This document shows positions 19,853 through 63,783 of a stretch of 64,000 nucleotides of DNA, piece by piece. Location: positions 75,817-139,816 of the forward strand of contig JAPLWK010000008.1 of NCBI GenBank assembly GCA_026396615.1, read 5' to 3'. How positions within the stretch are numbered: the first letter of the stretch is position 1; every line of letters begins with the position of its first letter. Both the position numbers and the translations under genes were made by a program. Below the pieces are notes generated by a model. The model ran no database searches and had not been told where the DNA came from. It saw only the letters and a program-made list of their open reading frames with translations. The stretch is from a candidate division WWE3 bacterium. GTDB taxonomy: Bacteria > Patescibacteriota > WWE3 > JAPLWK01.

Positions 19853-19885
19853 GCAGTTAGGGCGCTACTATGCTAAAATAACCTC

Positions 19886-21397
19886 GTGAAACCAGCCACA
19901 ACTACCGCCAAAATAATAGCCCTTATCACCCTTACCGCCTTTATCACCCTTATTAACACCACCCCTACAAATGCGGAGACGATAAGCTGCGGTGAAGTGG
20001 TGCCTACCACTGGTGCTGGGGCCGCTAAAAGCCCTTCCCAATATTTTGAAGTTTCAGTACCGGCCAGCTTTGGTATGTCTGAAGAAGATATTAGAAAGTC
20101 AGCCGAAGAAAAGTTAACCCGAGAAATTACCGTGGCTCAAGATAAATACTCAACTCCCAAAGCCGCCAGTCTCTCCCAAAAATATGAAGACATGCGCTTT
20201 GTGTTGCAGCCGCCAATGAATCCCACCGTCAACAGCTCTGCGCAAGGCATGAGTAAGGCCACGGAATATATAACCGCCTGCGAAGAAGGCACTACTAATT
20301 GGTTTTATATTGAGAGCCAGGGCATTGAAGGGCAAATTAGTAAGGATTTCACCCTGGCCGATAAGGCCACACAGCCCCTCAATGATTATTTAATTCATCT
20401 ACCGCTGTCGCCAACCAGAGTTGAAGAAGTAAATTCCAGCCAAGGGGCCGCCGCTCACTATTTTTTGGACCAACCCGACAGCGGAATTCCCAAGATGTCA
20501 CTGATTCTGCGACCAAGGATCGAAGACACTGATAGTTATAACGTTTATTGGGATCTGTGCGTGACACCTCCCAACCCCTACGACGCGAGTAATAGGGTCA
20601 GTTGCCCTTTTGAAGAGTTTGTGACCGAATTATCGACGAGTACCGGTGACACGCAGTCGATCGTTCCTGGAGCCTATACCAGCTTTGACGGCTCGATCGT
20701 TAACTGGGGAAATAGCCAAAGTGCCATGTGTGTAAGTTCCGAGACGCTAAAACTATCACCCTTTAAAGTTGCTAAAGGCCAAGGAGTGAGCGTGACGGCT
20801 AAGATTTTCGGTCGGCCGAGTGAAGCCAAAAGAGATACTTGCGTTGATAACGCCGCCGAAGTAACAGCCAACGCCTTTGCCTCGATTGATGGTGTGACCA
20901 AAAGTGAACATAGTCAAGCAGCCACCAAAGTGATGTGCCCCGGCGTCTATACCCCGGCCGGCCGGATTTTTAAACCGGAAGACCACTGCATTGCTGGTGT
21001 TTGTAAAATCGACCCGGCTATTCACACTGTTCAATCAATTACCGGAAACCTATGGGCCTGGCTTCAAAGTGCCCTTAGTAACTGCAACTCCGTCGCCGAG
21101 TGTATTGCCAAAATCCTCGTCCAAGACACTCGTAAATACTATGTTTATTTTTATAACGCTGGGGGCAATTACGGAGCCATCAATAGCAGTGCTACCAATA
21201 CCGGCGTTCAGTCCGGTTTTAATCAGTTATTTCGCCCACCTCAAGATGAATTTTCCAGTATCTTTGCCGAGGAACCAGCCGGCGATAACAACCACTTAAG
21301 CCACAACACGCCAATTAAGTCGGACTACACCAAAGTGCAGACGTATTTAACCCCACCGGGACAAAGTTTCCTCACAGATAAATCAGAAATGCGTTAA
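19886..21397 (+). CDS. secreted protein, paralog of the N-terminal domain of the 16445 protein
   Basis: Signal peptide. The shared motifs YNVYWDLCVTPPNP...VSCPFEEFVTE match LIYWKLCAKKGP...ISCQLSNFITD, and SLILRPR matches TLLRPPS. Confidence 0.45.
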   Translation: MKPATTTAKIIALITLTAFITLINTTPTNAETISCGEVVPTTGAGAAKSPSQYFEVSVPASFGMSEEDIRKSAEEKLTREITVAQDKYSTPKAASLSQKYEDMRFVLQPPMNPTVNSSAQGMSKATEYITACEEGTTNWFYIESQGIEGQISKDFTLADKATQPLNDYLIHLPLSPTRVEEVNSSQGAAAHYFLDQPDSGIPKMSLILRPRIEDTDSYNVYWDLCVTPPNPYDASNRVSCPFEEFVTELSTSTGDTQSIVPGAYTSFDGSIVNWGNSQSAMCVSSETLKLSPFKVAKGQGVSVTAKIFGRPSEAKRDTCVDNAAEVTANAFASIDGVTKSEHSQAATKVMCPGVYTPAGRIFKPEDHCIAGVCKIDPAIHTVQSITGNLWAWLQSALSNCNSVAECIAKILVQDTRKYYVYFYNAGGNYGAINSSATNTGVQSGFNQLFRPPQDEFSSIFAEEPAGDNNHLSHNTPIKSDYTKVQTYLTPPGQSFLTDKSEMR

Positions 21398-21403
21398 TCG
21401 TTG

Positions 21404-21425
21404 AGGACGAGGCATGCCTCGTCCC
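21404..21425. terminator. GC hairpin with GCATGC apex (GGACGAGG-CATG-CCTCGTCC) between convergent genes
   Basis: 8-bp perfect stem. The 26-nt string TTGAGGACGAGGCATGCCTCGTCC is repeated identically at 49700. Confidence 0.4.
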
Positions 21426-21497
21426 TACACTTATCGTCAGGAGGCCTCCTTTAGATTTGTAGGGACGACCCATGGGTCGTCCTCGATGATTCCGCTT

Positions 21498-22508
21498 TTA
21501 TTGCAACGCCTTGACGAAATATACAGCCGTCGTCGACCGCCCATCCGCCAACGTCACCGTCCCACTAAACGCATATACCGGTTCCAAATACGTACCTCCC
21601 TTACGAGTTTCCAGATACTCAAGTTTAACGTCAGTGAAACTGGCGGCATTAATTCCCGCCACCATCGCCAAACTATCTCCTACAATTCCCAAAGTCGCGA
21701 GAGTCGCCCGTCCAGCCTTTAAGTCTTCCAAAGCCGTTTCGATCGTCTTTAAAGGATAAACCCCAAAACTACCGTCACCATTTTGCAGCAAATGATAGTA
21801 AAACTTACCGGAAATTAGACCGTCATTTTGCCAACCAAAAGTTATCAGGGTTTCGTCACCAGGCAAACTGGTTACCGGCACATTATTAACGATTCGCAGC
21901 ACATTAAAATCGCCGGTTGGCGTATTTAAAGGCTGGTCGAAACTTAAATCAGGATAATTTAAATCCAGTGATTTTAATAGATTCTGCAGCACTTCGGTCT
22001 TTGAAGAAGCCTCCCCGCCAAATGACGCGATATCGCGAGGCTGCGCCAAGTTAAAAATAAAGCCATCGCTTACGGAATCGTAAAATAGATAATTGCCTTT
22101 TTCCTGCCACGTCTGACCCCCAAAAGTCGGTTTTGACTTAACCGTAAAACCTAATTTGACCGCCAATTTGTCTAGGGTGGACGGGGTTAAAACAGCTGTT
22201 TGCCCAAAGCGATAGACTCGAGCGGTCGCTGGAAACTTTAAAGTCGCTGTATCAATAAAGCTCTGCATGGCTGAAGGAGTGGCTCCCGGAATCGGGCTCG
22301 GTGGTAAAGAAATGACCGGCAGCGAGCCGAAAGTTTGGCTAACAGGCTCGCTAGGCACGGTAGTTGAAGTTGCCGGGGTCGTTGGTGCCGAGCTGCGCGA
22401 GGCCAACAAAAAGATGATTAAACCAATCCCGACAGCGCTAATAATGGCAATGGCCAGGATTTTATTATTCGCATAAAACTCTTTAAAAGCGGCAATATAT
22501 TTATCCAT
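21498..22508 (-). CDS. bitopic membrane protein (N-terminal TM anchor, Pro/Thr-rich linker, extracytoplasmic domain)
   Basis: TM ILAIAIISAVGIGLIIFLLA. Its start codon abuts the stop of the upstream 1178-aa gene. A VirB8/PrgL-like role is pure speculation. Confidence 0.35.
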   Translation of the reverse strand: MDKYIAAFKEFYANNKILAIAIISAVGIGLIIFLLASRSSAPTTPATSTTVPSEPVSQTFGSLPVISLPPSPIPGATPSAMQSFIDTATLKFPATARVYRFGQTAVLTPSTLDKLAVKLGFTVKSKPTFGGQTWQEKGNYLFYDSVSDGFIFNLAQPRDIASFGGEASSKTEVLQNLLKSLDLNYPDLSFDQPLNTPTGDFNVLRIVNNVPVTSLPGDETLITFGWQNDGLISGKFYYHLLQNGDGSFGVYPLKTIETALEDLKAGRATLATLGIVGDSLAMVAGINAASFTDVKLEYLETRKGGTYLEPVYAFSGTVTLADGRSTTAVYFVKALQ

Positions 22509-25500
22509 TAAGAACCTCCACTACAAACCGCAGCCGTCGAATTAACATAAGTTTCCGGGCAGACGCGGCTACCACTCGGATCAAAGATTTCATAATGTAA
22601 ATGGTACCCCGTGGAATAACCGGTTGATCCGGTTTTACCAACAATGCCGCCAATTCCCACATGCCAACAAGAACCCGTTGGCTTTCCGGGCATATAGCCG
22701 CTACCGGAATCACCGGCAATCGGTTGAAGGTGGGCGTAACGAGTGCGGTAACCGCCATCACCGGTAATATCAATATACACACCGTAAGGTAAATTGTTAT
22801 TGTTTTCGGTGGAAACGGCGTAACGACAAGCATTTCCCGCGATTAAAGCGTGGATCTCTGTGCCATCGCCGTAAGGTAAGTCGACGGCCAGCAACCCCTC
22901 ACTACCCTGATGCCAGGAACAGCCAAAAGTGACAGAGGCTGCCCCATCAGGCAAGCCACATGGCGCTATTTCCGCCGGCGTCCCCACTTTTATAACGGCG
23001 GTGGCGCTGTTACTCACACTCGCCCCCGAAATTGTGCCGGTGGCCGTCACCGTAGCAACAATAAAACGACTAGTGGTCGTGTACACTGTCATATTACAAG
23101 TATAGGTGATGCTGGCTCCTGCGGCCAGAGTCCCGGACCCAAAAGAAATATTCCCGCCGGATTCGGTGCCACTGGGCGTACAGGAACCGTAGCTAACGCC
23201 ATGGCCTGGTTGATAATTGTAATTAACGTTTAAACCGATAAGTTCGCTGCTACTGATATTAGTCACCTTTATGGTGTAAACAACAGCGGGACTGGAGTTT
23301 AAAGTTATAATTGGGCGGTCCACCGACATCTCTACTTTTAGATTAGGTGACGCCGCCCCCGCATCCGCCCCGCCGTGAGCGTTAAAATTCGCCCCGCCAA
23401 TTACCCCCATCGCGCCAAAAAGTAGTAGTGGGAATAGACATCCCACCGCGCAACAACCACAACTAACCACTTTTATATTTTCCCCGGAACTCATGAAGCC
23501 GTAATCGGTAAATACGGTCATTTTAAAAGGTCGCCAATAAAAAGCTGCCGCTTTTGACACCGGCCCCTTAATCGCACTCCAAATCTTCCCTAAAAGTTTT
23601 TGGCCAATCCACGCCAAAACAGCGGTGATAATTGGACCTAAAACAGGAAGGGCATTAGATAACGCTTCGATTCCGCCTAATATAGCCCCCAAAACTGCTT
23701 TTAAAGCCACTTTAAGTGCACCTTTAAGACCTAGCTTAAGTGCCATTTTGGCCCCAGAAGAAATAAGTCTTGTCTTTAACAGTAAAGCCCAAGCCTTAGG
23801 ATCCGCCGCAGCTGATTTTACCCAGCCACCTCTAAAAAAATTGATGGGACCCTTCAGCCACGGAACTCTTTTAAAGAGCGCCTCGAAGGCCACGCTTTGA
23901 AGATGATCTAAATTTTTACCGACTGAAGATACGGCCCCAATATATTTCTTAGCCAATCCATGAGAATCGATATCTTCCCAAAATTTAGCGAATTTGGTTA
24001 AATCAGAAACGCTGCCAGTAGCATCAATAATACCGTGGCTAGTTAGAAATGCCTTAATTTGCGGGTTTTTAGCTAAAAAGGTAGCTAATTCCCCCGCTGT
24101 AAGACCGGCCACATCACGAGTCATCCCAGGAGCTTGACTAACAGACCGACCAATAACAGCCTGAAGAACATCAATACTCCCTGGAGCCCCTGAAAGAATT
24201 CCATTGATTTCTGCGGCACTTACTAATGGAAGATTAGTAGAAGGATCAATTATAGAGGCTGCTTTCTGTAAGAAGTTAACTACTTTCCAATCGGTGTCAG
24301 CAAAACCTAAAGCGCTACTTACTTTACCGGCAGTTAGCTTAATTGTTCTCTTAGCGACATCTTTATATTCTTTTTTGACGGGATCCCAGGTAGAGGCTCC
24401 GAAAGCGTCGAATTTATCAATTACATGTATGTATCCAAAATTCTCGGTGTCAATTAAACCAAATGATAACCTATTTACAACATTCGCTAATTTGGGATGA
24501 TCCGCAACTGCTTTAGTTAATTTGTAGAATGGCTGCCAACCGGTTATATCTGTGTCATCAAATCCATTTAGCAACCCGAATGTTTTTACCTTCTTCATTG
24601 CAAAACTAACGTAGTCTGCTGGGCTTAAGTACTTGGCGTATTGGGAAATGCCAGGAATATATTTGGCGACCCTGGTACCCCAAACAAAAAACTTAAAAAA
24701 AGATTTTGAATCAACTGCTTCTAAAAAGTCTGTCGCGGTACTTTGAGTTTCACGATAATTAACTAACTTCACCCAAGTCACCATCCGAGTTGCTTCAGTT
24801 GCAGACAAGCCTAGATCAGTCAAATATTGCGTACCACCCTTCAACACATCCTTCCACGTTTGATCAACATTTTTATACATCTCCTGATACTCTTTCTCTT
24901 TTTCCCAGAATTTATCTCTCGCCGCTTTAAGGTCAGGGTTGGTCATACTGGCCGCGGCGGCCGCCCCAATAACCAGTGGTTGGGGTACAAACGGAACCGC
25001 TAGGACACCTAACCCAGCAGTCGCGGGACTCATGCTACTTAGCCCTTTATTAAACCTATCTTGTATTTTCCCTTTGGTACTTATGTCAAATCTTAAGTTG
25101 TCCCACTTTCTTCCTTGAATATCCCCACTAAAAGGATGAAAAACACCACCGGAATCGGTATAACCGGTTTGTACTACACCGCTTGTGTCTGTATAAGAAT
25201 ACGTAACCGTCTGAGTTGGTGGAGCCACAGCAAAAGGATCTACTTTATCCGCTACCTCTATTGCTGACCCTTGAAGATTCTGCCAACGCAATGCAGCCGC
25301 TTGAACAGCCGGATTAGGAGAGGCTAACATGCTGGTTAAATTAGCCGCATTTATTTGGGCGTTAATAGAATCCAATAAATCAACTTGAAGATCTTGGTAA
25401 TTCTTTAAACGGCTAGGGCGACTACCGCGAGTTATTCCCCATTTCTGAATATCGTTAGCCACTTTCTTGTACATGTCGGTTCCGTTAACTATTACAGAAG

Positions 25501-26044
25501 CTGAAGAGCTGATAGCCCCAGTAACAGGATCTTCTACAACTAAACCTTTACCACCGATACCGTGATTCTCACCTTTAACTAAAGGCTGCCAAAAATACTC
25601 CAGCTCTGCAACTGCTTCTAGATCTTCCGTGTTAACTACTGCTTTCCACCAATTATCTGCAGTTTTTTCTAAAACTTTCTCAGGGTCATCTAACCAATCT
25701 TTTAAATTTAGGGAGAGTGGGGTGCCCGCAGCTCCTGGGAGGTCCCTGAGTTCTTGTTTAGTAGTTTCTACATCAATATCCTTCTCACGATCACCTTCAG
25801 GGTTATAGCGAGCGCTCAAGAAGCGGTTTATATCTGCACCTAAATTTTTATAAACTTTAGCCGGATAAGTACCAATATTTAAATCGTCTATAAAAGCGTC
25901 AAAATCGCCCTCGTCTAAAAGTCCACCCCCGTACTCATAAGGCTCCCATTCTTTTACGTAGCCTCGAGCAATCGGTTTTCTACCTTTTGGGGGAACTTTT
26001 TTAAAACTCCGGCCTGGGCCTCGCTTCTTTTTGGGTGGTGGCAT
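22508..26044 (-). CDS. giant protein (1178 aa). It has a highly basic N-terminus, a long alpha-helical region with a Gly/Ala/Lys-rich amphipathic segment and a TM, a DUF11/CARDB-like beta domain, and a C-terminal peptidase M23 (LytM) domain
   Basis: The C-terminal TGYSTGYHLHYEI and HALIAGNACRYA...YGVYIDI match the M23 HxxxD / HLH metal-binding motifs. The N-terminus is MPPPKKKRGPGRSFKKVPPKGRKP. A tape-measure-like AL-K-rich stretch lies at aa about 720-800. Confidence 0.55.
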   Translation of the reverse strand: MPPPKKKRGPGRSFKKVPPKGRKPIARGYVKEWEPYEYGGGLLDEGDFDAFIDDLNIGTYPAKVYKNLGADINRFLSARYNPEGDREKDIDVETTKQELRDLPGAAGTPLSLNLKDWLDDPEKVLEKTADNWWKAVVNTEDLEAVAELEYFWQPLVKGENHGIGGKGLVVEDPVTGAISSSASVIVNGTDMYKKVANDIQKWGITRGSRPSRLKNYQDLQVDLLDSINAQINAANLTSMLASPNPAVQAAALRWQNLQGSAIEVADKVDPFAVAPPTQTVTYSYTDTSGVVQTGYTDSGGVFHPFSGDIQGRKWDNLRFDISTKGKIQDRFNKGLSSMSPATAGLGVLAVPFVPQPLVIGAAAAASMTNPDLKAARDKFWEKEKEYQEMYKNVDQTWKDVLKGGTQYLTDLGLSATEATRMVTWVKLVNYRETQSTATDFLEAVDSKSFFKFFVWGTRVAKYIPGISQYAKYLSPADYVSFAMKKVKTFGLLNGFDDTDITGWQPFYKLTKAVADHPKLANVVNRLSFGLIDTENFGYIHVIDKFDAFGASTWDPVKKEYKDVAKRTIKLTAGKVSSALGFADTDWKVVNFLQKAASIIDPSTNLPLVSAAEINGILSGAPGSIDVLQAVIGRSVSQAPGMTRDVAGLTAGELATFLAKNPQIKAFLTSHGIIDATGSVSDLTKFAKFWEDIDSHGLAKKYIGAVSSVGKNLDHLQSVAFEALFKRVPWLKGPINFFRGGWVKSAAADPKAWALLLKTRLISSGAKMALKLGLKGALKVALKAVLGAILGGIEALSNALPVLGPIITAVLAWIGQKLLGKIWSAIKGPVSKAAAFYWRPFKMTVFTDYGFMSSGENIKVVSCGCCAVGCLFPLLLFGAMGVIGGANFNAHGGADAGAASPNLKVEMSVDRPIITLNSSPAVVYTIKVTNISSSELIGLNVNYNYQPGHGVSYGSCTPSGTESGGNISFGSGTLAAGASITYTCNMTVYTTTSRFIVATVTATGTISGASVSNSATAVIKVGTPAEIAPCGLPDGAASVTFGCSWHQGSEGLLAVDLPYGDGTEIHALIAGNACRYAVSTENNNNLPYGVYIDITGDGGYRTRYAHLQPIAGDSGSGYMPGKPTGSCWHVGIGGIVGKTGSTGYSTGYHLHYEIFDPSGSRVCPETYVNSTAAVCSGGS

Positions 26045-43745: not shown

Positions 43746-45128
43746 TCATTTCTTACCCGCCGGCTTCGCAGGCTTCCCCGGGCTCCACCCACCACCCACC
43801 TGCAAAGCGGCTTCTATCTTCTGAGGAATAGATCTGGCAGTCCACACAAACCATAGTCCAATCACCCAATTAAAAATTAATCCTAAAAAAGCAAAAGGTG
43901 TTGAATTTAAGTCGCCTACAATCTGATTTATCATAATTGTAGGCCCTTTTATTAAAATGTTGGTTCCCAGGGATACAAAAAGCCACATAGCAGGTATGGC
44001 AAGAACATTACCAATTAGGGACTTAAACCAACTGGTGATCATTTCGTCTTTTCCCGGAAGAGCGCCTACCAAAAACTGCAGCGGAGCAAAGATTGTCATC
44101 AGCATTATCCTACCAAACCTTGTAAAATAGCTTATTCCAACAGCAATTAAAGCTAAGATATAAGTTACGACTAAAACTAAAAGGAGGCATAATACAAAAA
44201 GCGCAACACCAGTTCCAACACCAGAAGCTCCAGCAGCGGATAAAGCAACCACGCCCAGGGCGGAAACGACAAGTTGAACGAGAACATCTACCATATCTGG
44301 TTGAGAAAAAACGCCACCGACAACTAATTTACCAACAAAATCTCCTAAGACTGGAATTAATTTTATAGCGAAACCAGCGATTGGGTAACTAAAAGTTATT
44401 AGTAGTAAACAAACAACAACTTTTGGTAAAGCGTCCTGAACCGTAATTACCGTTTGCGGTTTAATCTCGTGTCGAAACATCACCATGAAACCGAAGGCCA
44501 CTAGAATAATCACAAATAGTAGGTAGGCTAAATTTCTGAATGCCTTCCATAAATCAAGCACCGTGGTGCCAAAAATACCATCTGCAAGAGTACCCGCAGC
44601 ATAGGCACTTTGGGGAACTAATGGCGAATCTCTCTTAATGTCATTAATATATAAAGCTAAGTTTACCGGCAGTAAATCGACTCGTTTCGGTGCTTCGGAG
44701 GTTACAGCATAAGTCACGCCTAAAAGACTAGGAGGCATAACTTGTGAAGACTGAGGTTTCATATTTGTAAGCGGAGAATTCGTAAGGCATTTTCTTACCT
44801 CAACCGTGGCAGACGCGCGATCTTTAGAAGCAGCCGTTACCTCACTCATATCACAATTACCAAAAATTAGCGTCTGAGAAGCCGCGTTTACCCCAGCCAC
44901 GGCTAAATTACTGGTCCATTTGTCCATATCTGTTGCCAAATGCCTTAAATCATTAAGAGATTTTAAACCTACAGTAGTTAGAGCAAAGTCTAGTACATCT
45001 GCTTTAACAGGTTTAGCTAAAATAAAAGAGCCAATGCTGAAAGTGCTAATGAGGATTAAAAGGATTAAAGATAGAGACAAACGAGATTTCATAATGTTTA
45101 TGCTACAGAGTACGTTGACCGTAGTCAA
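43746..45128 (-). CDS. polytopic membrane protein with signal peptide and a 200-aa N-terminal ectodomain (VirB6/TrbL-like topology, speculative)
   Basis: Signal peptide, then at least 6 TM helices. C-terminal Lys/Pro tail. Confidence 0.3.
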   Translation of the reverse strand: MTTVNVLCSINIMKSRLSLSLILLILISTFSIGSFILAKPVKADVLDFALTTVGLKSLNDLRHLATDMDKWTSNLAVAGVNAASQTLIFGNCDMSEVTAASKDRASATVEVRKCLTNSPLTNMKPQSSQVMPPSLLGVTYAVTSEAPKRVDLLPVNLALYINDIKRDSPLVPQSAYAAGTLADGIFGTTVLDLWKAFRNLAYLLFVIILVAFGFMVMFRHEIKPQTVITVQDALPKVVVCLLLITFSYPIAGFAIKLIPVLGDFVGKLVVGGVFSQPDMVDVLVQLVVSALGVVALSAAGASGVGTGVALFVLCLLLVLVVTYILALIAVGISYFTRFGRIMLMTIFAPLQFLVGALPGKDEMITSWFKSLIGNVLAIPAMWLFVSLGTNILIKGPTIMINQIVGDLNSTPFAFLGLIFNWVIGLWFVWTARSIPQKIEAALQVGGGWSPGKPAKPAGKK

Positions 45129-45144
45129 GAATTACCAGATCTAT

Positions 45145-46284
45145 TTATGACGCCACTTTAACCGGCATTATTAGGTGTAGATAGTCAACTCGATCATCGA
45201 GGCGCCAGAGGCCTGGAGCGAGGGCCCCGGTGGTTTCTAAAATGATATTGTCACCACTAGTGTTGTTCATTAAATCTAGAAGATATTTGCCATTAAAAGA
45301 GATGATCAGATCGTCGCCGCTAATGGTTGCTGGAATAGCCACGGTGCTTTCCCCAACTTCGGCGGTAATCGCCGACAAAGTAATTTGGCTTTTACTCCCG
45401 TCTAATTGGACTTTAATAATATTGCTGGCATCGCGAGCAAAAATGCTACTTAAGCGAGCCGCTTTTAAGAATTCCTCTTTACTAAAAGTGCTCTTGGTTT
45501 TAAAGTCTTTGGGAATAATTCGCAAATAATCCGGAAACTCGCCTTCGAGAAGCCTCGTAATAATTAAGAAGTTTTCTCCCGAAAAAGCGGCTAAATTTCC
45601 CTCACGCTCAATCGAAATTGATAAAGGTGAAGTGCCGGAACCAACCAAACGAGCGACTTCCAAAAGAGCTTTAGCCGAAATAACCACCGGTTCTAAAGTT
45701 ATTGGCTCAGGAAGCGAAAGACGACGCTCCGCGAGTCGAAAGCCATCAACGCCGACCAGAACCAAATCGTTACCCTCAGCTTTAAGAAGAATACCGCCCA
45801 GAATGGGCCGAGCGTCGTCAGAGGAAGCCGCAAAAACGACTTCGGAAACCGCTTTGGCAAAGGCTTTAGGATCAATGGTTAAGGAAAGGTCAGCCGGAAC
45901 GGCCGGCAGACTGGGAAACTCTTCAGCGGAGAGGCCGTTAAATTTGGACTTACCGGCGGCCGTTTTTAAATAGAAAATTTCTTTTTCCAAAAAGGCTTCT
46001 ATTTCTGTCGCTGGTAAATTACTAACCACCTCAGAGATAAGACGAGCCGGCACCGAAATAGCCCCCGCTTCGGTAATAGTAGCTGGGATCCAAGTGATAA
46101 TGCTGGTTTCAAGATTGGTGGCGGAGAGTTTAAGGCGGCCATTGTCCTCGGTCGTGATTAAGACGTGACTAAGGACTGGCAGACTGCCTTTAGTAGCCAC
46201 CGCTTTGCTAACAGTCGATAATCCTTCCCGTAAATTTTCTTGGAGGCAGGTAAATTTCACTCTATTTGACCACAGAAACGACAA
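45145..46284 (-). CDS. dnaN: DNA polymerase III beta subunit (sliding clamp)
   Basis: MKFTCLQENLREGLSTVSKAVATKGSLPVLSHVLI is the DnaN N-terminus. About 370 aa, three-domain length. Confidence 0.85.
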   Translation of the reverse strand: MSFLWSNRVKFTCLQENLREGLSTVSKAVATKGSLPVLSHVLITTEDNGRLKLSATNLETSIITWIPATITEAGAISVPARLISEVVSNLPATEIEAFLEKEIFYLKTAAGKSKFNGLSAEEFPSLPAVPADLSLTIDPKAFAKAVSEVVFAASSDDARPILGGILLKAEGNDLVLVGVDGFRLAERRLSLPEPITLEPVVISAKALLEVARLVGSGTSPLSISIEREGNLAAFSGENFLIITRLLEGEFPDYLRIIPKDFKTKSTFSKEEFLKAARLSSIFARDASNIIKVQLDGSKSQITLSAITAEVGESTVAIPATISGDDLIISFNGKYLLDLMNNTSGDNIILETTGALAPGLWRLDDRVDYLHLIMPVKVAS

Positions 46285-46714
46285 TGTGTCTCTCGTAACC
46301 TTCGCCGGCAGATTCGGATTTCATCCCAGGCATTGTGCCAATGACAGTATGAATTAAACGTCTTTCGAAAGGCGGCATCGGCGGTAAATCAATGGCTTTA
46401 TCTAAAAAGCGGGCTCGGTCGCAGGCATTGGTCGCAATCTCTCGCAGTCTGGCTTCGCGCTCTGAAGCATAGCCCGAAATATCTAACCTTAAATCAACCC
46501 ATTCGCCATACTTATTGTATAAAGCCAAAGCCAACCAGGTTTGCAAAGAAGCTAAAGTTTCGCCGTGATAACCAATCAGTATCCCGAGATTCTCTCCGTC
46601 GAGTGACACCCCAAGTGTTCCTTCAACCTCAGTGACAGAGACTTTGGCTGGCATCGCCAGTTTCTCAATTAGTTCGGTAGTTAAGTTTTGTAAAGTTTCA
46701 ATTTTTTCCGGCAT
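46262..46714 (-). CDS. jag: Jag/KhpB (KH + R3H domain RNA-binding protein)
   Basis: Positioned next to yidC. LIGYHGETLASLQ (KH) and ERRLIHTVI (R3H). Confidence 0.65.
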   Translation of the reverse strand: MPEKIETLQNLTTELIEKLAMPAKVSVTEVEGTLGVSLDGENLGILIGYHGETLASLQTWLALALYNKYGEWVDLRLDISGYASEREARLREIATNACDRARFLDKAIDLPPMPPFERRLIHTVIGTMPGMKSESAGEGYERHIVVSVVK

Positions 46715-47480
46715 ATTTTTTTATTTTCACCAACCAGCGCTTGGCGTGCCCATCAACCACTACTTGTTGAATCAATTGCAGTAACGACGACAAAAACCAG
46801 TACATCGTTAAACCCGAAGCCAGCTTCCAACCAATCAAAACCGTCATCACCGGCATAATGTATAACGATTGTTCTTGGATATTATACATGATATCGTCGC
46901 TTTTTCCAGCGGTTTTCTTGGCTAATTTTTCTTCTTTGGTAACTTGCGGCATCATCATTTTGGAAAGTAAAAATTGAGTAGCGGCGGCGATAATCGGAAG
47001 AATAAAAAATTGATCGGGCTTAATTAAATCAAGATACAAGAAACGGGTGTTTAAAACGTGGCCACCGGCAAATTGCAGGAACGGGTACAGTACTGAATTT
47101 AAGGTTTGGCCGGCATTGTTACCTAGAACCTTTAGAAAAACTTGATACAAAGCAAAAACAATCACTAAAGTAACAATTTGCATAATGCAGCCGGACGAAG
47201 GATTAAGACCATGCTCTTTTAGAAACTTGGCCTGAGCCTCCATTTGGGCTTTTTTATCGTCCTTAAATTTCTCTTTAATGGCGGCGAGTTCCGGAGCTAA
47301 TTCTCGCTGTTTTTTAGCGGATTTTAGCATCGGCAGCGACAAAGGCAAAGTAACGACTTTAATAATTATAGTGATGGCGATTATAGCCAAGCCTAAATTA
47401 CTGCCTAAAGAGTTGTATAAAAAAACCAGAGCGTTGGTTAAGGGAAAAACTAAACCTTGATTCCAAATGTTAGCAAGCAT
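46698..47480 (-). CDS. yidC: membrane protein insertase YidC (short, Gram-positive/CPR type)
   Basis: Five TM helices with the conserved PLS..LP...Q and a C-terminal basic tail. Position after yidD. Confidence 0.8.
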   Translation of the reverse strand: MLANIWNQGLVFPLTNALVFLYNSLGSNLGLAIIAITIIIKVVTLPLSLPMLKSAKKQRELAPELAAIKEKFKDDKKAQMEAQAKFLKEHGLNPSSGCIMQIVTLVIVFALYQVFLKVLGNNAGQTLNSVLYPFLQFAGGHVLNTRFLYLDLIKPDQFFILPIIAAATQFLLSKMMMPQVTKEEKLAKKTAGKSDDIMYNIQEQSLYIMPVMTVLIGWKLASGLTMYWFLSSLLQLIQQVVVDGHAKRWLVKIKKYAGKN

Positions 47481-47486
47481 AATAAA

Positions 47487-47723
47487 TTATTTAACCGGAT
47501 CGAAGCCACCGCGACTAAACGGGTTGCAACGGAGAATCCGGTACATGCCCATTAAAGACCCTCGCAGAATACCATATTTACCGATGGCTTCATAGCTGTA
47601 CTGCGAGCAACTGGGAGTAAAGCGGCAGAAATGAATCCCCGGAAACAGTTTGTGAGGAATTCCGTGATCAAAGGAGAGGAGTTTTTGATAAAGCCGAATT
47701 AAGGCTTGTGCGAATTTCGTCAT
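47487..47723 (-). CDS. yidD: membrane protein insertion efficiency factor YidD
   Basis: [45 protein letters not shown] is the YidD signature. Confidence 0.85.
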
Positions 47724-48009
47724 AATTGCTAGTTAACGACCGTTTAAAAGCGACGATTACCACGTCATAACCCATTTTAAAAGATTCTAAATTTTCGTGC
47801 CAGGCATCCCTAAACATCCGCCGGACGCGATTACGATAGACCGCCCGCTTGTCAAGAGAATTAGTGACAATAATCCCAAGACGCGTTACTCCTTGCGTCT
47901 TAGCGGCCACGTACGACAAGCCAAACAGAGGTGTTGCAACCCCTTTTCCTAAGCGTTTAACGCGACGAAAATCGTAATCTGAAGTGAGTCTATATTTAGC
48001 AGGCAGCAC
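47668..48009 (-). CDS. rnpA: ribonuclease P protein component RnpA
   Basis: [21 protein letters not shown]...[22 protein letters not shown]. Confidence 0.85.
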
Positions 48010-48015
48010 TATTAT

Positions 48016-48174
48016 TTACGCTTTCTGAGTTAACTGCGGCGTTAAAACTTTGCGCCCCTTGGCCCGGCGAGATTTTAAAACCCTACGTCCTGTTGGGGTT
48101 GACATTCTCTTCATGAAACCGTGCACTTTAACGCGGTGTTTTTTCTTCGGTTGAAAAGTTCTCTTTGTAGCCAT
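48016..48174 (-). CDS. rpmH: 50S ribosomal protein L34
   Basis: The reverse strand encodes [47 protein letters not shown] (52 aa). It was not in the ORF track because it is shorter than 60 aa. Coordinates are within ±1 nt. Confidence 0.8.
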
Positions 48175-48285
48175 AACGAATGCATCTTACTTAAAAATAA
48201 ACCAAATAGCAACAACTAAAGAGCCTCTTGACGGCTTGTTGATAACTAACTACGATTTATAAACAACTGCCCCAAACTTACCCAC

Positions 48286-49641
48286 ATGCCAACAGACATT
48301 CTTTGGAAAAACATTTTAAGTGAGATAGAAAAGGAAATCACCAGTAGCTTCTTTAAAGCTTTCTTAACTAAAACAAAGTTAATTAACTATGAAAATGGCG
48401 TGCTTAACGTTACCTGTGCCAGCGAGCAGGCTCGCTTTCAAATTGAAAATAAATACTTGGGAATTATTAAAAGTGTGGCGGATAAGTTAACCCAAAGCAA
48501 CACTAAAATTGTAATGACTGTGGAAGAAGCTGCTAAAAAAGCGGTCACAGAAGCACCACTACTTGATCAAATTGCCAAAGAAAAAGCCCACGACCCGGTA
48601 TTCACTTTAAATAGTAATCTCTCCACAAGCTACACCTTTGATAGCTTTGTAGTGGGTCCTAACAACCGCTTGGCTTCGGCCGTTGCTCATGCTATTGCCG
48701 ACAACCCCGGTACCGTCTACAATCCCTTCTTCATTTATTCCGGCGTTGGCTTGGGAAAAACGCATTTGATGCAAGCAATTGGCAACGAGATTTTAAAAAA
48801 CAAAAAGGGTGGCCGAGTGGTTTACACCACCGGAGAATCATTTACCAATGAGATGGTAGAAGCGATTCAAAATTCAAAAAGACAATATAGTAGCGTTTCT
48901 AAATTTAGAGATAAATATCGCAATGTTGATGCTTTACTCATAGATGACGTCCAGTTCATTGCTGGTAGGGAGACGACCCAGGAAGAGTTCTTCCACACTT
49001 TTAACGCTCTTTATTTAAATCATAAGCAGATTATTTTAACGTCCGATCGGCCTCCCAAAGACATTGCTCGCCTCGAAGAACGCCTCTCGTCCCGTTTCTT
49101 AAGTGGCATGACGGCCGATATGCAAGCCCCCGATTTAGACATGCGCTCGGCTATTCTGCGTCAAAAACGTGACCAATTAAAATTACCAATTACCAATGAG
49201 GTGACTGATTTTATCGCCGAACGAGTTCTTAGTAATGTGCGGGAACTGGAAGGGGCTTTGCTTAAGGTCAGTGCAGTCGGTCAAGCTTCAGGATCAGCGG
49301 TGACGATTGACCAAGCGGCTGAAATCTTGGGGCAAGTAGCCCGCGAGCAACGCAAAAATTATACTTCTACCGACATCATCAAAGCCGTCGCCAGTTATTA
49401 CAACGTTAAATTAGTGGATCTTAAAGGGCCCAGACGCCAAGCCGAAGTCGTCGTGCCTCGGCAAATTGCCATGTACCTGGTTCGCTCTTTAACTCAAATG
49501 CCGGTCATTACCCTCGGCGAAATCTTTGGCGGTCGTGATCACAGCACAGTCATTCACGCCACGGATAAAATAGCGTTAGCGGTTAAAACCGATACCAAAA
49601 TGAATCAAGATATTATTAATATTAAGCAAGGTTTATTGTAG
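48286..49641 (+). CDS. dnaA: chromosomal replication initiator DnaA
   Basis: Walker A GVGLGKTHLMQAIG, box VII, and the C-terminal DNA-binding domain ...IAMYLVR...GGRDHSTVIHA. Confidence 0.9.
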   Translation: MPTDILWKNILSEIEKEITSSFFKAFLTKTKLINYENGVLNVTCASEQARFQIENKYLGIIKSVADKLTQSNTKIVMTVEEAAKKAVTEAPLLDQIAKEKAHDPVFTLNSNLSTSYTFDSFVVGPNNRLASAVAHAIADNPGTVYNPFFIYSGVGLGKTHLMQAIGNEILKNKKGGRVVYTTGESFTNEMVEAIQNSKRQYSSVSKFRDKYRNVDALLIDDVQFIAGRETTQEEFFHTFNALYLNHKQIILTSDRPPKDIARLEERLSSRFLSGMTADMQAPDLDMRSAILRQKRDQLKLPITNEVTDFIAERVLSNVRELEGALLKVSAVGQASGSAVTIDQAAEILGQVAREQRKNYTSTDIIKAVASYYNVKLVDLKGPRRQAEVVVPRQIAMYLVRSLTQMPVITLGEIFGGRDHSTVIHATDKIALAVKTDTKMNQDIINIKQGLL

Positions 49642-53730: not shown

Positions 53731-54399
53731 TTAAGCGTACGCTTGGATAATTTTAAAAAGTTCTTCCGGTTCTCGCGAGGCGTTACCAACGAGGACCCCC
53801 CAAATCTCAGAAGACTTGGCGTAAACGGCGGCATTTTTACTGTTTACACTGCCCCCGTAAAGCACGGGAACGTCCGGAAGAATTGTCTGCACCTCTTTAA
53901 TGAATGCTAAAACCTCTTTAACATCTTCTGCTTTACCAACTTTACCGGTACTAATAGCGTCCAGTGGTTCATACGCAAGGAGTAAATCATCGGCTTTAAA
54001 ACCGGCATCAGCGAGAATTTGCACTTGGTTTAGATTGGATACGCAAACAATCGGCATAATATTACAGGCAAAAGCTTGACCGATTTTAGCAACTATAACC
54101 TCATCACTTTCTTTAAACTCAGTCCGCCGTTCACTATGCCCGATCAACGCATAGTCAACCATTTCAGCAACTTGGCTGGCCGCTACTTCACCGGTATGGG
54201 GTCCGGTCGGAAAGGCCGAAACATCCTGAGCCCCTAAAAAGTAAGGCACTCCTTCAAAGGCTTTTAGAAGCGGTAGTGATGGGCAGAAAATGACGACCAC
54301 ATTTTCCGGGAGTATTTGATTATTAAATTCCACCAAGAATTCCCGAGTTTCTTTAATATTTTTATTAGCTTTCCAGTTAGCAACGACGAATTTTTTCAT
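53731..54399 (-). CDS. tpiA: triosephosphate isomerase
   Basis: VVANWKANK (NWKMN motif), IGHSERR, and the C-terminal YGGSV. Confidence 0.85.
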   Translation of the reverse strand: MKKFVVANWKANKNIKETREFLVEFNNQILPENVVVIFCPSLPLLKAFEGVPYFLGAQDVSAFPTGPHTGEVAASQVAEMVDYALIGHSERRTEFKESDEVIVAKIGQAFACNIMPIVCVSNLNQVQILADAGFKADDLLLAYEPLDAISTGKVGKAEDVKEVLAFIKEVQTILPDVPVLYGGSVNSKNAAVYAKSSEIWGVLVGNASREPEELFKIIQAYA

Positions 54400-54405
54400 A
54401 AAGTA

Positions 54406-56289
54406 TTATGGAATGTTAACCTCTGTTACGCCACTTGACCCCGATGTTAGATTTTCTTTAAGTTCCTCAGTTTTAGCGTCTTCTTTAATTTTTAAAACCT
54501 CGGAAGGCTTAGTGGTAATTAATTTATGCTCTTCAGGCGAGGCGACGACTTGGATGGCGACGTGATTAGCGCCGGCAAAGAACAGACCCTCTCCAATGCC
54601 AGCGGAGAGTAATAATCTTTTTTCCCCGTCAGACAAGTAGAAAACGTCGCCCAATTTGTCGATTTCTGAAGGACTTTGCTTTAGCAGTATTTGCAGTGAA
54701 GAGTTGGAAATAATGGCTTGGCCAAAGTCGGTTCCTAAAAAGTCGCCGACATTTTGAGTAATTGTGGTTAGTCCCAAGAAATATTTGCGGCAACGCTTGG
54801 CCATGGAGTATAGGAAACTGGCGCTATCGGGGCTTTGCATCATATACCAAGCTTCATCCACAATTAAAATCCGTTTCTTCATTTCTCGTTTTACTTTAGT
54901 CCAAATGTAATCAAGGATAATAAACATGGCAATGGGCCGCAGCACATCCTCCAGTTGCTTGGTTGAAAAGACCGTAAAGCTGTTATCTAAATTTAAATTA
55001 CTATGGTGATCAAAAATCCCGGCCATACTGCCCTTAATATATCTTTCGAGTCTGGTCGCCAAACCTTTGGCCTCGACTTCTTCCATGCCCAGCAACACTT
55101 TATAAAGATCTTCCATCAATGGCGGCTCTTGGGTGCGCTGGGTTTCGGGATCGGGAGTAATGCCCTTTAGCTTGTAGGTAGCCACCAAAGCGCGATCCAA
55201 AATGGCCTCCTCAGTGTTACTAATTGTGCCGTAAATTATTTTAAAAAGCGAGTGCAGACTTAAGATTTTTAAACCTAGTTCATTCTCACCACTACCTGTG
55301 ACGCCAGCCAGATCAAAAGGATTTATTTTAGATTGAGAGCTTGAGGAAAATTCGATGTACTCGCCGCCAACCGCTTCACATAAGCGGTCGTACTCATTTT
55401 CCGGATCTAGTACAATCACGTCAGTTCCAAACATTAAGGAGCGTAAAGCCTCTAATTTCACAAAGTAAGACTTTCCGGCCCCGGCCTTGGCAAAAACCAC
55501 CGAGTTAGCGTTTTCCAAAGTAAAGCGGTCAAAAATAACTAAAGAACCGTTATGTTTATTAATACCATATAGAATTCCTTCGTTGCTGGTTAATTCTGAT
55601 GAGGTAAAGGGAAACGTCGTTGCCAAAGAGGTCGTGTCCATGTTCCTGGTCACTAAAATCTTGTCTAAACAAGTCGGCGTGGTGGTTTGAAAAGCCTGTT
55701 CCATTTGTAAAGTGGCGTGTTTAGAAATAATCATGATCGAGCCTAGTGTCCCTTCGACCCGCTTAGTGACAGCATTTAATTCATCCAGGTTAGTGGCCGG
55801 AATCGTAATATATAAGGAGAATTGGAAAAAGCGTTCCGCTCCTTTTACTAATTGATCTTGCAGCGATTTAGCGTCCTCCAAAGCGGCCCGCACTGTTGGA
55901 TCCACCACTTTACCATGCTCGCTATCGGAAGCTAATGTTGCCTCCATTTCGGCAATTTTATGCCGTAAATCATCTAAAACTCCTTGGGCTTGAACCGGAT
56001 AATAAAACATGGAAATGTCTAAGGTATGATCAAAAGTAATTAATGGTGATAGCCAGTTGGCGCCGACGAATCTGGGGTAGCCGGAAACAAAGAGGGTCCT
56101 AAAAAAAGTGGTTCCGATTTTTAAATGATCAAAGTCTACCTCGATGGCTGAGGGAGCAATAATGTCGGCTACATTAACCATGCCGGCGGCCAAAGTTTGA
56201 GCCGGATTATCCGTCGGGGTTTCGGGAGCGGCGGCTGGTGTTTTTTTCTTCCCCGGTAATAAATCTCTAAAATTTAAGTATAAGGCCAT
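54406..56289 (-). CDS. VirB4-family T4SS ATPase (Gram-positive TraE/PrgJ type), C-terminal 627 aa including the ATPase core
   Basis: IEVDFDHLKIGTTFFRTLFVSGYPRFVGANWLSPL (the CagE_TrbE_VirB region), Walker A VVFAKAGAGKSYFVK, and Walker B ILIVDEAW. The start codon lies 3 nt after the in-frame TAA of the upstream ORF. Confidence 0.75.
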   Translation of the reverse strand: MALYLNFRDLLPGKKKTPAAAPETPTDNPAQTLAAGMVNVADIIAPSAIEVDFDHLKIGTTFFRTLFVSGYPRFVGANWLSPLITFDHTLDISMFYYPVQAQGVLDDLRHKIAEMEATLASDSEHGKVVDPTVRAALEDAKSLQDQLVKGAERFFQFSLYITIPATNLDELNAVTKRVEGTLGSIMIISKHATLQMEQAFQTTTPTCLDKILVTRNMDTTSLATTFPFTSSELTSNEGILYGINKHNGSLVIFDRFTLENANSVVFAKAGAGKSYFVKLEALRSLMFGTDVIVLDPENEYDRLCEAVGGEYIEFSSSSQSKINPFDLAGVTGSGENELGLKILSLHSLFKIIYGTISNTEEAILDRALVATYKLKGITPDPETQRTQEPPLMEDLYKVLLGMEEVEAKGLATRLERYIKGSMAGIFDHHSNLNLDNSFTVFSTKQLEDVLRPIAMFIILDYIWTKVKREMKKRILIVDEAWYMMQSPDSASFLYSMAKRCRKYFLGLTTITQNVGDFLGTDFGQAIISNSSLQILLKQSPSEIDKLGDVFYLSDGEKRLLLSAGIGEGLFFAGANHVAIQVVASPEEHKLITTKPSEVLKIKEDAKTEELKENLTSGSSGVTEVNIP

Positions 56290-56292
56290 AAA

Positions 56293-56988
56293 TTAAGCAA
56301 TCATCGGCTCCACAATGGGGGCGGTATATTCACTGGTATCCTTTATTTTCTGCTCCCTGGAACTGGCGGGGTTATAAATATCATAAAAAAGCGACACCAA
56401 TTCTTCGGTGTTTAATTGCCGAGCTTTAACCCCCATTTTAGAAAATTCTTTAATAATATGATCTCTTTTGGGGATTAATTGGCTAACCGACTTCTTTAAA
56501 ATATATTCGGTATCTACATAAACTCTTTTAGTGGTGACGCCAAATAAGTTTAGCAGCCAATCGAAGGGGCCACTCCCTGTCGCCGACGTGACAATTCCGT
56601 AAGGAATAATCACGTAGAATTTTTTATCTAAGACATCATTTTGGGTAATTAATTCTTCAATAAATTTTCGATACCCAATTACCTGGCCTCGTAACTTTTC
56701 ATTAGCCTGGCCCTCTTCCGCTTTTGTGAGTATCTCCAAATAATTAGATACGTCCATTCTTTTACTGCGAATCACGATTTGAATCGGGAAAGATAGAGAA
56801 TTTAATAGACCGGCGTAAGCGGCAATCATACTATCTTGCTCGCGTTCAGAAAGGAGGTCAAAGTTAACGGCGGTGGTTTGAATCACTATGGCCGCCCCGC
56901 CGGTTTTTAGAATCAAAGTATCATTCTTAATATCCGCGATATCAATGTGTTGCTGAGTGGAAGCATTTATGGGAGTGTTATATTTCAT
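56293..56988 (-). CDS. N-terminal domain of the VirB4/TraE-like ATPase, encoded as a separate ORF in the same frame
   Basis: DIADIKNDTLILKTGGAAIVIQTTAVNFDLLSEREQDSMIAAYAGLLNSL...KKFYVIIPYG parallels the first 200 aa of Gram-positive VirB4 homologs (PINFxLxSExEQ ... RFFVIxxY). Confidence 0.55.
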   Translation of the reverse strand: MKYNTPINASTQQHIDIADIKNDTLILKTGGAAIVIQTTAVNFDLLSEREQDSMIAAYAGLLNSLSFPIQIVIRSKRMDVSNYLEILTKAEEGQANEKLRGQVIGYRKFIEELITQNDVLDKKFYVIIPYGIVTSATGSGPFDWLLNLFGVTTKRVYVDTEYILKKSVSQLIPKRDHIIKEFSKMGVKARQLNTEELVSLFYDIYNPASSREQKIKDTSEYTAPIVEPMIA

Positions 56989-58403
56989 AGATTAGGCTTG
57001 CTGACGAAGTTTAACGTTGGTAAGAGCCTCCCATCAGCAATTACTTCCATTGTAGCAAACTTGCTCCCCGGGAGGCTCGCGGTGACCCGATATTTGCCGT
57101 TAGGGAGCGGGGTGGAGACTACGAATTCTCCTAAATCATTGGTTTTAAGGGCTCTTAAGGGGTCGCCGGTGTCATCTTTAACGATAATAATAACGCCTTG
57201 AATCAGTTTTCCCAAACTATCTTTAACAACGCCATTTATTACATTAGGGCTGGCAGTGAGAGAGCGGCTTTTGTCGATTTTTGGCTCTTCCAATATTTCC
57301 TGGGCGGCATTACCCATTGTAGGTTGAATAGGTACGATAGGTTTGATAGGTGTTATAGGTGTATTGATCGGTGGGTTGGTTCTTAAAGCGGCTAGGTTTT
57401 GTTTCATTTCTTCAAATTCGGCTGCGATTTGTTTTTTTTTAGTTTTCTCGTCTTCTTTAACCTTTAATTCCGCCGCTTCGGCAGCCTTAGTCTCCATTTC
57501 CAGTTTTTTAAGTTCCGCGGTTAGGAGTGGCGGGACTTCATCGACCGTTTTTGGGGCCGGCACCATCGTTGGCATTTGAACGGGACTGTTAAAACCCCGT
57601 TTTTCCCTAATTTTAGTCACCAATTTTTCTAAATTTGTGACTTGTTCGGTAATACTGGCCTCCTGGGGTTTAGTTGTAACCTCGTCATTATTAGGAAGGG
57701 ACGCACCATAAACACTTTTAGCCGGAATATTCATTTGAGTTTGGGTATCTTCAATCTTTAAGGCGCGACCGGCATTACCTTCGGGAGTTACGGTCACTTC
57801 CGGTGGGGTTTCAATAGTCGTTGTGGTTGTCGTCGGAGCGGTCGTTGTTAAATTACCGGGTACTGAAACATTAAAATTTAAATGTTCTAAGTAAAGTTCT
57901 TCGGCGAGATCGAATTTATTTTTAGGTTTATTACTTTGGGCTGCTCCCAGATAAGTCATTAAACGGGCCCGAGAGTTGGCGGGAGCAATTATTAGCGCTT
58001 CATTTTTAAGGGCGGAGGCGTAATCAGCCAGTAGAAATTTAGGCGCCAGTGGCTCTTTTTTCCAGGCCCGCAAGGTCGGACTACTTATTGCTTTCCAAAA
58101 ATTACGAATCCAAACATCCAGACCCCGATTTTCAAAAGGCACGAACGCAAAAGCCAAGCCTCCCAAACTAATAAGAGCAACAAGCGGCCACTTAAAAATA
58201 AATACCAGATGTGAAGAGTACACTGCATAGGCACCAACTACCCCTGTCGCGGCATATACGAATTGGCGGACTGTCATCGAGCCAATCAACTTAAATTCCA
58301 CACTCATGATGTTCTGGGGAACGGGGTGCTGTTTACTGGATGAAAAGTCGGTGGTTGGTAGTGGCATCGACCCTATTATAGTAGAATGCAACCATAAATA
58401 CAC
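56985..58403 (-). CDS. PrgI-like (VirB3-analog) two-TM N-terminal domain fused to Pro/Thr-rich linker, coiled coil and C-terminal Ig-like/carboxypeptidase-regulatory-like domain
   Basis: N-terminal KLIGSMTVRQFVYAATGVVGAYAVY...WPLVALISLGGLAFAFVPFENRGLDVWIRNFWKAI. The C-terminus is VKDSLGKLIQGVIIIVKDDTGD...NGKYRVTAS. It overlaps the VirB4 N-domain ORF by 4 nt. Confidence 0.4.
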   Translation of the reverse strand: MYLWLHSTIIGSMPLPTTDFSSSKQHPVPQNIMSVEFKLIGSMTVRQFVYAATGVVGAYAVYSSHLVFIFKWPLVALISLGGLAFAFVPFENRGLDVWIRNFWKAISSPTLRAWKKEPLAPKFLLADYASALKNEALIIAPANSRARLMTYLGAAQSNKPKNKFDLAEELYLEHLNFNVSVPGNLTTTAPTTTTTTIETPPEVTVTPEGNAGRALKIEDTQTQMNIPAKSVYGASLPNNDEVTTKPQEASITEQVTNLEKLVTKIREKRGFNSPVQMPTMVPAPKTVDEVPPLLTAELKKLEMETKAAEAAELKVKEDEKTKKKQIAAEFEEMKQNLAALRTNPPINTPITPIKPIVPIQPTMGNAAQEILEEPKIDKSRSLTASPNVINGVVKDSLGKLIQGVIIIVKDDTGDPLRALKTNDLGEFVVSTPLPNGKYRVTASLPGSKFATMEVIADGRLLPTLNFVSKPNL

Positions 58404-58405
58404 AT

Positions 58406-58504
58406 GTCATTCCGGCCCCGGAGCCGGAATCTAGTAACAGATCAAAATTATAAATTAAAAATTTATTGTATATTTACTGGATTCCGGGTCAAGCCCGGAA
58501 TGAC
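58406..58504. mobile_element. MITE-like composite. It consists of hairpin repeat type B (58406-58438, + orientation), a 35-bp AT-rich spacer, and hairpin repeat type A (58474-58504, inverted)
   Basis: Located between the dnaJ stop and the PrgI-like start. The dnaJ stop codon lies inside the right-hand repeat. Confidence 0.4.
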
Positions 58505-63009: not shown

Positions 63010-63783
63010 ATGCCATTAAAAAAATCACTGGGCCAAAACTTTTTAATTGATAACTTAGTAATTTGGGACCTGCTAGATGCGATTGATGTCCGGTCAAACG
63101 ACGTTCTCCTGGAGGTAGGAGCCGGTTCCGGGGCCGTCACTACTGAGCTGGCCGGTCGAGCAGCTAAAGTATACGCGGTCGAATTTGATGAAGACTTGAT
63201 TCCAGAGTTGACCTCAAACTTAGAGCAATTTTCCAATGTTGACATTGTTCCGGCCGATATTTTACGCTTTCTAGAAGATTATGACCACGTCAAATCTCTG
63301 GGGATTACTAAAATCGTGGGCTCCATTCCCTACCAAATCACTTCGCCTTTAATACACCTGGCTTTAAAATATAATTATCCGGTCATCTTCGTGGTCCAAA
63401 AAGAAATGGCGGAAAGACTAACCGCTAAGCCGCCAAAAGCAAATTATTTGTCGACTTTTGTGAGTCTGTGGGGTCAAGCCGAGATAGTTCGAACCATTGA
63501 TCGGAATTCTTTCAATCCGGTGCCGGGTGTCGACAGTGCGATCTTGAAAATCGTTCCGCATCCGGTCGTCTCTTCGGTTGACCCGGTCGCTTTCTCTAAG
63601 TTTTTGCACAAAGGTTTTAGTAATCCTCGCAAGATGCTGAACAAAGTGTTTAATAAAGATTTATTAACGTCCTTAGATATTGATCCGATGCGCCGAGCAG
63701 AGACGTTGACTCTTTCGGAATGGTTAAAACTTTTTGATATCGAAATCGGAACGAGGGCTGAGCATGCTCAGCCCCTACAATAA
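63010..63783 (+). CDS. rsmA: 16S rRNA (adenine1518/1519-N6)-dimethyltransferase KsgA/RsmA
   Basis: KSLGQNFLID, VLEVGAGSGAVT, and IVGSIPYQITSP are all KsgA signatures. Confidence 0.9.
   Translation: MPLKKSLGQNFLIDNLVIWDLLDAIDVRSNDVLLEVGAGSGAVTTELAGRAAKVYAVEFDEDLIPELTSNLEQFSNVDIVPADILRFLEDYDHVKSLGITKIVGSIPYQITSPLIHLALKYNYPVIFVVQKEMAERLTAKPPKANYLSTFVSLWGQAEIVRTIDRNSFNPVPGVDSAILKIVPHPVVSSVDPVAFSKFLHKGFSNPRKMLNKVFNKDLLTSLDIDPMRRAETLTLSEWLKLFDIEIGTRAEHAQPLQ

Follow-up and report, generated by a model that had tools for sequence, protein, structure and literature searches.

The closest described counterparts of the locus analyzed here are the chromosomal type IV secretion systems (T4SSs) of Patescibacteria, in which Quinonero-Coronel et al. 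(2025, Microb Genom; PMC12102498) counted 2272 homologues of TrsD and found virB4 associated with 1664 of these. The T4SS clusters of this group are usually found without a relaxase and often lie near dnaA (PMC12102498). In Candidatus Southlakia epibionticum ML1, the TrsD homologue beside virB4 is listed as essential, and transposon sequencing, as cited in the same paper, indicated that the ML1 T4SS is needed for epibiotic growth. A more distant counterpart occurs on the plasmid pSK41, where TrsC (VirB3-like, 135 aa), TrsD (227 aa) and TrsE (VirB4, 672 aa) are encoded in that order by separate genes that are out of frame. Here, we consider a 64,000-nucleotide stretch of a candidate division WWE3 genome (contig JAPLWK010000008.1; hereafter, the window), in which a VirB4-family ATPase had been described as split by a single TAA. 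This original prediction offered four explanations: a genuine two-polypeptide VirB4, a recent nonsense mutation, a sequencing error or stop-codon readthrough. Comparison across 70 loci upholds the first and speaks against the other three. On the strength of sequence comparison, the window very probably encodes a standard Patescibacteria chromosomal T4SS core, with the TrsD-like protein and a shortened VirB4 as separate genes and separate polypeptides. The two-gene VirB4 arrangement is ordinary, ancient and already published, and it occurs throughout the ultra-small Patescibacteria.

Both genes lie on the reverse strand of the window. The first, encoding the TrsD-like protein of 231 aa, runs from 56988 to 56293 and terminates with a TAA at 56295 to 56293. 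The second, virB4 (54406 to 56289; 627 aa), starts with an ATG at 56289 to 56287 and ends at 54406 in the same frame as the first. The junction (56290 to 56295, reverse strand) consists of the TAA and a 3-nt spacer, TTT, at 56292 to 56290, and translation across it in one frame gives ...EYTAPIVEPMIA*FMALYLNFRDLLPG. The ORF list, the junction sequence and the in-frame translation agree on these positions, so the basic observation of two same-frame ORFs parted by a TAA and one codon holds. The upstream gene corresponds to the opening half of the VirB4 N-terminal domain, detached from the rest; the downstream gene supplies the second half of that domain together with the C-terminal P-loop ATPase domain.

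The 627-aa product is a VirB4-family T4SS ATPase by its curated score as well as by its catalytic motifs. It scored 383.9 bits (cut-off, 325) against the CD1110-family VirB4 model NF045971 of NCBIfam, covering profile positions 181 to 735 of 752, and it also matched Pfam P-loop_TraG (1e-30). Residues 230 to 592 matched the VirB4 C-terminal domain in PDB model 4AG5 (1.1e-51), and similarity to TrsE of pSK41 extended over 587 columns at 27% identity. Walker A (P-loop) motifs follow the pattern [AG]-x4-G-K-[ST], which is satisfied by AKAGAGKS at residues 267 to 274 (55468 to 55491, reverse strand), aligned to GTSGVGKS of TrsE. The Walker B motif ILIVDE, at residues 474 to 479 (54853 to 54870, reverse strand), aligned to the hydrophobic-DE stretch of TrsE; both motifs were read from the translation and are intact. 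What the protein lacks is the canonical VirB4 architecture with the N-terminal domain on the same polypeptide, the first ~230 residues being encoded by the separate upstream ORF. Against the mycoplasma-ICE VirB4 model VirB4_plasma (894 positions), the 231-aa product covered positions 101 to 287 and the 627-aa product positions 293 to 893; the two tile a full-length VirB4 profile without overlap, which substantiates the VirB4 homology claimed for both ORFs. Separately, residues 45 to 207 of VirB4 weakly matched the C-terminal portion of the actinobacterial SCO6880 family (30.4 bits, cut-off 60; positions 312 to 476 of 477), a hint that VirB4 may be divided at another point in the conjugation systems of actinomycetes.

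Assignment of the 231-aa protein required more sensitive comparisons. A search against a local copy of Pfam returned nothing significant (FemAB only, below cut-off), and PF26593 ("TraC-like"), the family to which its orthologs are assigned, was seen only in precomputed annotations of those orthologs. Direct sequence search against the PDB gave only a chance globin match (E = 0.35), and structure prediction with a fold search was therefore used; the predicted model superposes on R388 TrwK/VirB4. A profile built from the family of the window protein aligned to TrsD of pSK41 over 174 columns at 24% identity (probability, 93.7%; E = 2e-7). The NCBIfam model NF041427 (TrsD/TraD) matched at 31.2 bits (E = 1.7e-7), short of its cut-off of 200. 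We regard the protein, on these similarities, as a remote TrsD homologue and not as a member at the level of NF041427. In the broad sense of TrsD/TraD that accompanies the MPF_FATA profiles (PMC12102498), it does belong: it is a homologue of the VirB4 N terminus, in the size range of ~200 to 230 aa, encoded between a VirB3-like gene and virB4.

With the 231-aa protein as the query, 3375 homologues were recovered. The best 120 all carried a precomputed PF26593 annotation and belonged to Patescibacteria (WWE3, Parcubacteria, Saccharimonadales and others). Within these best 120 of 3375, 115 were 222 to 246 aa long and the longest was only 397 aa; hence, none of the 120 is a full-length fusion. 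A C-terminal tail of 60 to 190 aa extends the TrsD-like ORF at several Microgenomatia loci (e.g., L001, ~391 aa).

The comparison with orthologs that the original prediction called for was made on 71 loci from species-representative genomes together with the loci of two closer relatives; junctions were evaluated by script, and 70 independent loci could be analyzed. A stop codon lies between the TrsD-like and ATPase genes in all 70, across several Patescibacteria classes, and this is the normal two-gene arrangement. Start and stop codons overlap as ATGA in 12 loci and in a TAATG/TGATG-type manner in 20, and virB4 starts within 10 nt of the upstream stop in 48 of the 70. Among 65 complete downstream ATPase ORFs, 61 are 596 to 745 aa long. 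Of the four others, two (~1180 to 1207 aa) are longer through a C-terminal extension or fusion, and the remaining two, at 225 and 393 aa, may be short because of frameshifts or errors in metagenome-assembled genomes (MAGs). Several MAG records with a Patescibacteria-type cluster (L001 to L007 and others) bear the title "uncultured Gammaproteobacteria" or "Pseudomonadales," and "Verrucomicrobiia" or "Burkholderiaceae" appears on single records; such titles are probably placeholders or wrong taxonomy labels.

These data bear directly on whether a formerly fused, full-length virB4 was recently broken by a nonsense mutation and is becoming a pseudogene. In its favor, the ORFs share a frame with only a TAA and one codon between them, and fused full-length VirB4 is commoner in other bacteria (profiles of 752 to 894 positions). 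However, the genes are separate in 70 of 70 loci and mostly out of frame. Conservation of both halves is strong, with a mean column identity of 61% and 23 invariant columns among the aligned TrsD-like proteins, and the ATPase motifs are intact. Moreover, the ATG in the window falls exactly at the ortholog start and is followed by the conserved M-A-L...KK motif. The ATPase N terminus, consisting of M-A/G-L/F, a K-K lysine patch, a variable linker and GxxxVxDIIAPxxIEVDF, is common to orthologs that start at or beside the upstream stop, and position 56289 is therefore supported as the true start of virB4. We accordingly give pseudogenization almost no credence.

Could the TAA instead be an artifact of sequencing or assembly? 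One wrong base is enough to create a stop codon; nothing specific to this locus points to such an error. The two nearest relatives, L072 (SRR22388067) and L073 (SRR22388065), at 94% protein identity, are independent assemblies from different sequencing runs, and both have the TAA with the ATG 3 nt further on (TAA-AAT-ATG). A JGI relative (L075; 74% identity) has TAA-ACAT-ATG, in which the spacer is 4 nt and the frame is lost. In these nearest relatives, the stop is kept, the spacer drifts as noncoding sequence does and the frame is not kept. With the arrangement universal among the loci compared, an error is about as implausible as a nonsense mutation: the universal split and the independent assemblies of close relatives together exclude both.

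The remaining alternative is programmed readthrough of the TAA, giving a fused VirB4 of ~859 aa beside or in place of the separate proteins. The in-frame geometry of the window and of L072 and L073 would permit it. Such a mechanism needs a conserved frame, however, and relative to the upstream gene the ATPase gene is in frame +2 at 40 loci and +1 at 21, which puts 61 of 70 out of frame, the 74%-identical L075 among them; only 9 loci share the frame. The overlapping stop and start codons at many loci are likewise incompatible with fusion. The stop in the window is a TAA followed by T, which in bacteria (E. coli) is an efficient termination context. A terminator-like hairpin (56411 to 56394) lies ~100 nt upstream of the TAA and not at it, and such sites are fewer here (3) than in shuffled sequence (mean, 9.9). 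Readthrough as a conserved mechanism is therefore excluded by the nonconserved frame and the overlapping junctions, and we assign it a very slight probability for this locus, where nothing speaks for even a trace of it beyond the in-frame geometry. At 9 of 70, a shared frame is rarer than the 1-in-3 expectation by chance and so carries no signal, and we interpret the common frame and the one-codon spacer in the window as coincidence. The description of an ATPase "split by a single TAA" is not supported, since the frame relation is not conserved. We speculate, at long odds, that rare readthrough of the TAA in the same-frame lineages (the window, L072/L073 and eight other loci) could yield a little covalently fused, full-length VirB4 that seeds or regulates assembly and, more generally, that with this half-domain detached, the membrane-docking module of VirB4 could be tuned or exchanged in Patescibacteria without touching the motor.

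Returning to two separate polypeptides, the proximity of stop and start codons, 3 nt apart here and overlapping in many relatives, suggests that virB4 is most likely translated by coupling, with ribosomes that terminate on the trsD-like gene reinitiating 3 nt downstream. Such coupling would favor equimolar synthesis of the TrsD-like protein and VirB4. A conserved ribosome-binding site between the genes was part of the original prediction's test. None was found at the junction in the window: the virB4 ATG is not preceded by a canonical Shine-Dalgarno motif at a workable distance, the nearby GGAG ending 18 nt upstream. Elsewhere in Patescibacteria, some lineages have a GGAG-type motif embedded near the 3' terminus of the gene upstream of virB4. 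Motifs resembling Shine-Dalgarno sequences precede only 6 of the 46 ORFs of at least 139 aa in the window, and the genome in general seldom relies on them.

The first gene of the cluster, at 56985 to 58403 (reverse strand), encodes a VirB3-like protein of 472 aa with an N-terminal PrgI-family membrane domain (residues 27 to 105; Pfam PrgI, 31.8 bits, cut-off 27) and a C-terminal CarboxypepD_reg-like domain (residues 389 to 452; 33.2 bits). Its TGA overlaps the ATG of the 231-aa gene (ATGA), and the PrgI-like gene predicted upstream is thus confirmed. A homologue is found directly upstream of the TrsD-like gene in Microgenomatia/WWE3-type loci and in L072 to L076. The operon would accordingly be read as a VirB3-like (PrgI-family) membrane protein, the TrsD-like protein and the shortened VirB4 ATPase, with the TrsD-like protein equivalent to roughly residues 1 to 230 of the N-terminal domain in a full-length VirB4 and the 627-aa protein to the remainder plus the ATPase domain. 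By analogy with the R388 TrwK/VirB4 structure, the TrsD-like protein may dock noncovalently at the membrane, both on the VirB3-like protein and on the rest of the VirB4 N-terminal domain, so that TrsD-like protein and VirB4 would be physically associated, and the assembly of all three would energize the secretion machine. The role of the T4SS in this organism can be conjectured from a Saccharibacterium, in which others have reported the system to be essential for epibiotic growth.

A candidate operon promoter, TTGACC-16-TACAAT (58465 to 58492, reverse strand), lies in the 100-nt intergenic region between dnaJ and the prgI-like gene. It matches 10 of 12 consensus positions, joint best with one other site between 52400 and 59600, and promoter-like sites in that interval are no more numerous than in shuffled sequence; the evidence for it is weak.

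Downstream of virB4, tpiA (53731 to 54399, reverse strand) begins 6 nt past the ATPase stop, and an LCP-family gene (LytR_cpsA_psr) follows 5 nt past tpiA. The predicted product of tpiA is compact, at 222 aa, and covers the 245-position Pfam TIM profile end to end. The adjacency to virB4, flagged originally as unusual, is real and is confined to this lineage: by tblastn, tpiA lies downstream of virB4 among relatives only in L072 (94%), and the LCP gene is likewise lineage-confined. tpiA is absent from this position in the 74% relative, where dnaN abuts virB4, and from the vicinity of virB4 in all 71 genome loci. A functional link between tpiA and virB4 was rejected because tpiA is downstream only in the window and the 94% relative; the packing of tpiA and the LCP gene looks like that of a compact genome.

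The T4SS cluster is bordered by dnaK-dnaJ on one side and the origin region on the other, with hrcA-grpE-dnaK-dnaJ upstream, dnaA (48286 to 49641) 4.8 kb away and dnaN, jag and yidC at 45145 to 47480. A scan of 43 ORFs (all 47 of at least 150 aa in the window except hrcA, dnaK, dnaJ and the ORF at 63010 to 63783) revealed no relaxase or coupling-protein (T4CP) domain. The context therefore agrees with that of Patescibacteria chromosomal T4SSs, which lie among housekeeping genes near dnaA, with neither relaxase nor coupling protein in the cluster. The GC content of the window is 44%, and TGA serves as a stop codon (e.g., in the prgI-like gene), indicating standard code 11 and not the Gracilibacteria/Absconditabacteria code.

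Gene order around the origin differs from that of the 74% relative (L074/L075), which reads M23 peptidase (reverse), then 439-aa protein, prgI, trsD and virB4 (all forward), then dnaN (reverse), jag, yidC and rnpA, and dnaA (forward). Relative to L074/L075, the cluster in the window is inverted and on the other side of dnaA (compared region, 43746 to 49641), with Wzy-like, solute-binding, LCP and tpiA genes in between, an order consistent with a rearrangement across the origin. Counterparts of the two L074 genes that flank the T4SS were found in the window 10 to 30 kb from virB4. One (22508 to 26044, reverse strand) encodes an M23-peptidase protein of 1178 aa with 38% identity to the 1175-aa protein of L074; the other, beside dnaN (43746 to 45128, reverse strand), encodes a 460-aa protein without a Pfam match and with 41% identity to the 439-aa protein of L074. 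In S. epibionticum, essential peptidase and lysozyme genes adjoin virB4 (PMC12102498), and on that basis the M23-peptidase and 460-aa genes may be dispersed T4SS accessory genes. Beside the M23-peptidase gene, at 16445 to 22508, are large ORFs (1135, 503 and 336 aa) without Pfam matches.

For annotation, the locus carries a caution: a short in-frame ORF directly upstream of a shortened Patescibacteria VirB4 should be annotated as a TrsD-like gene and not as part of a disrupted virB4. The literature has already asked what purpose a separate half of the VirB4 N-terminal domain serves in a T4SS on which a Saccharibacterium depends for its epibiotic lifestyle, and the window adds nothing new to that question.

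Compared with described systems, the window differs in nothing essential from the chromosomal T4SSs of Patescibacteria (PMC12102498), including that of ML1. In both, a TrsD homologue is encoded directly upstream of a Patescibacteria-clade VirB4 with PrgI/VirB3 adjacent, and the cluster is chromosomal, near dnaA and without a relaxase or coupling protein nearby. The window is set apart by the C-terminal CarboxypepD_reg-like domain of its VirB3-like protein and by the tpiA and LCP-family genes directly downstream, which are found in this lineage only. The TrsC-TrsD-TrsE genes of pSK41 and pGO1 (TraC-TraD-TraE; staphylococcal conjugative plasmids, MPF_FATA, pGO1 subclass) have the same order and are likewise separate, with a TrsD of ~230 aa that can be aligned to the 231-aa protein over its whole length and a VirB4 of ~630 to 670 aa. 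In contrast to the window, the pSK41 system is plasmid-borne and conjugative, has a relaxase and a coupling protein and carries a 14-nt spacer at the junction; the similarity is remote, with TrsD seen by profile comparison only. In systems with full-length VirB4 (R388 TrwK; CD1110-family, mycoplasma ICE), one polypeptide of 750 to 900 aa spans the profile that the two window proteins cover jointly, whereas in the window its first ~230 residues are the product of a separate gene.
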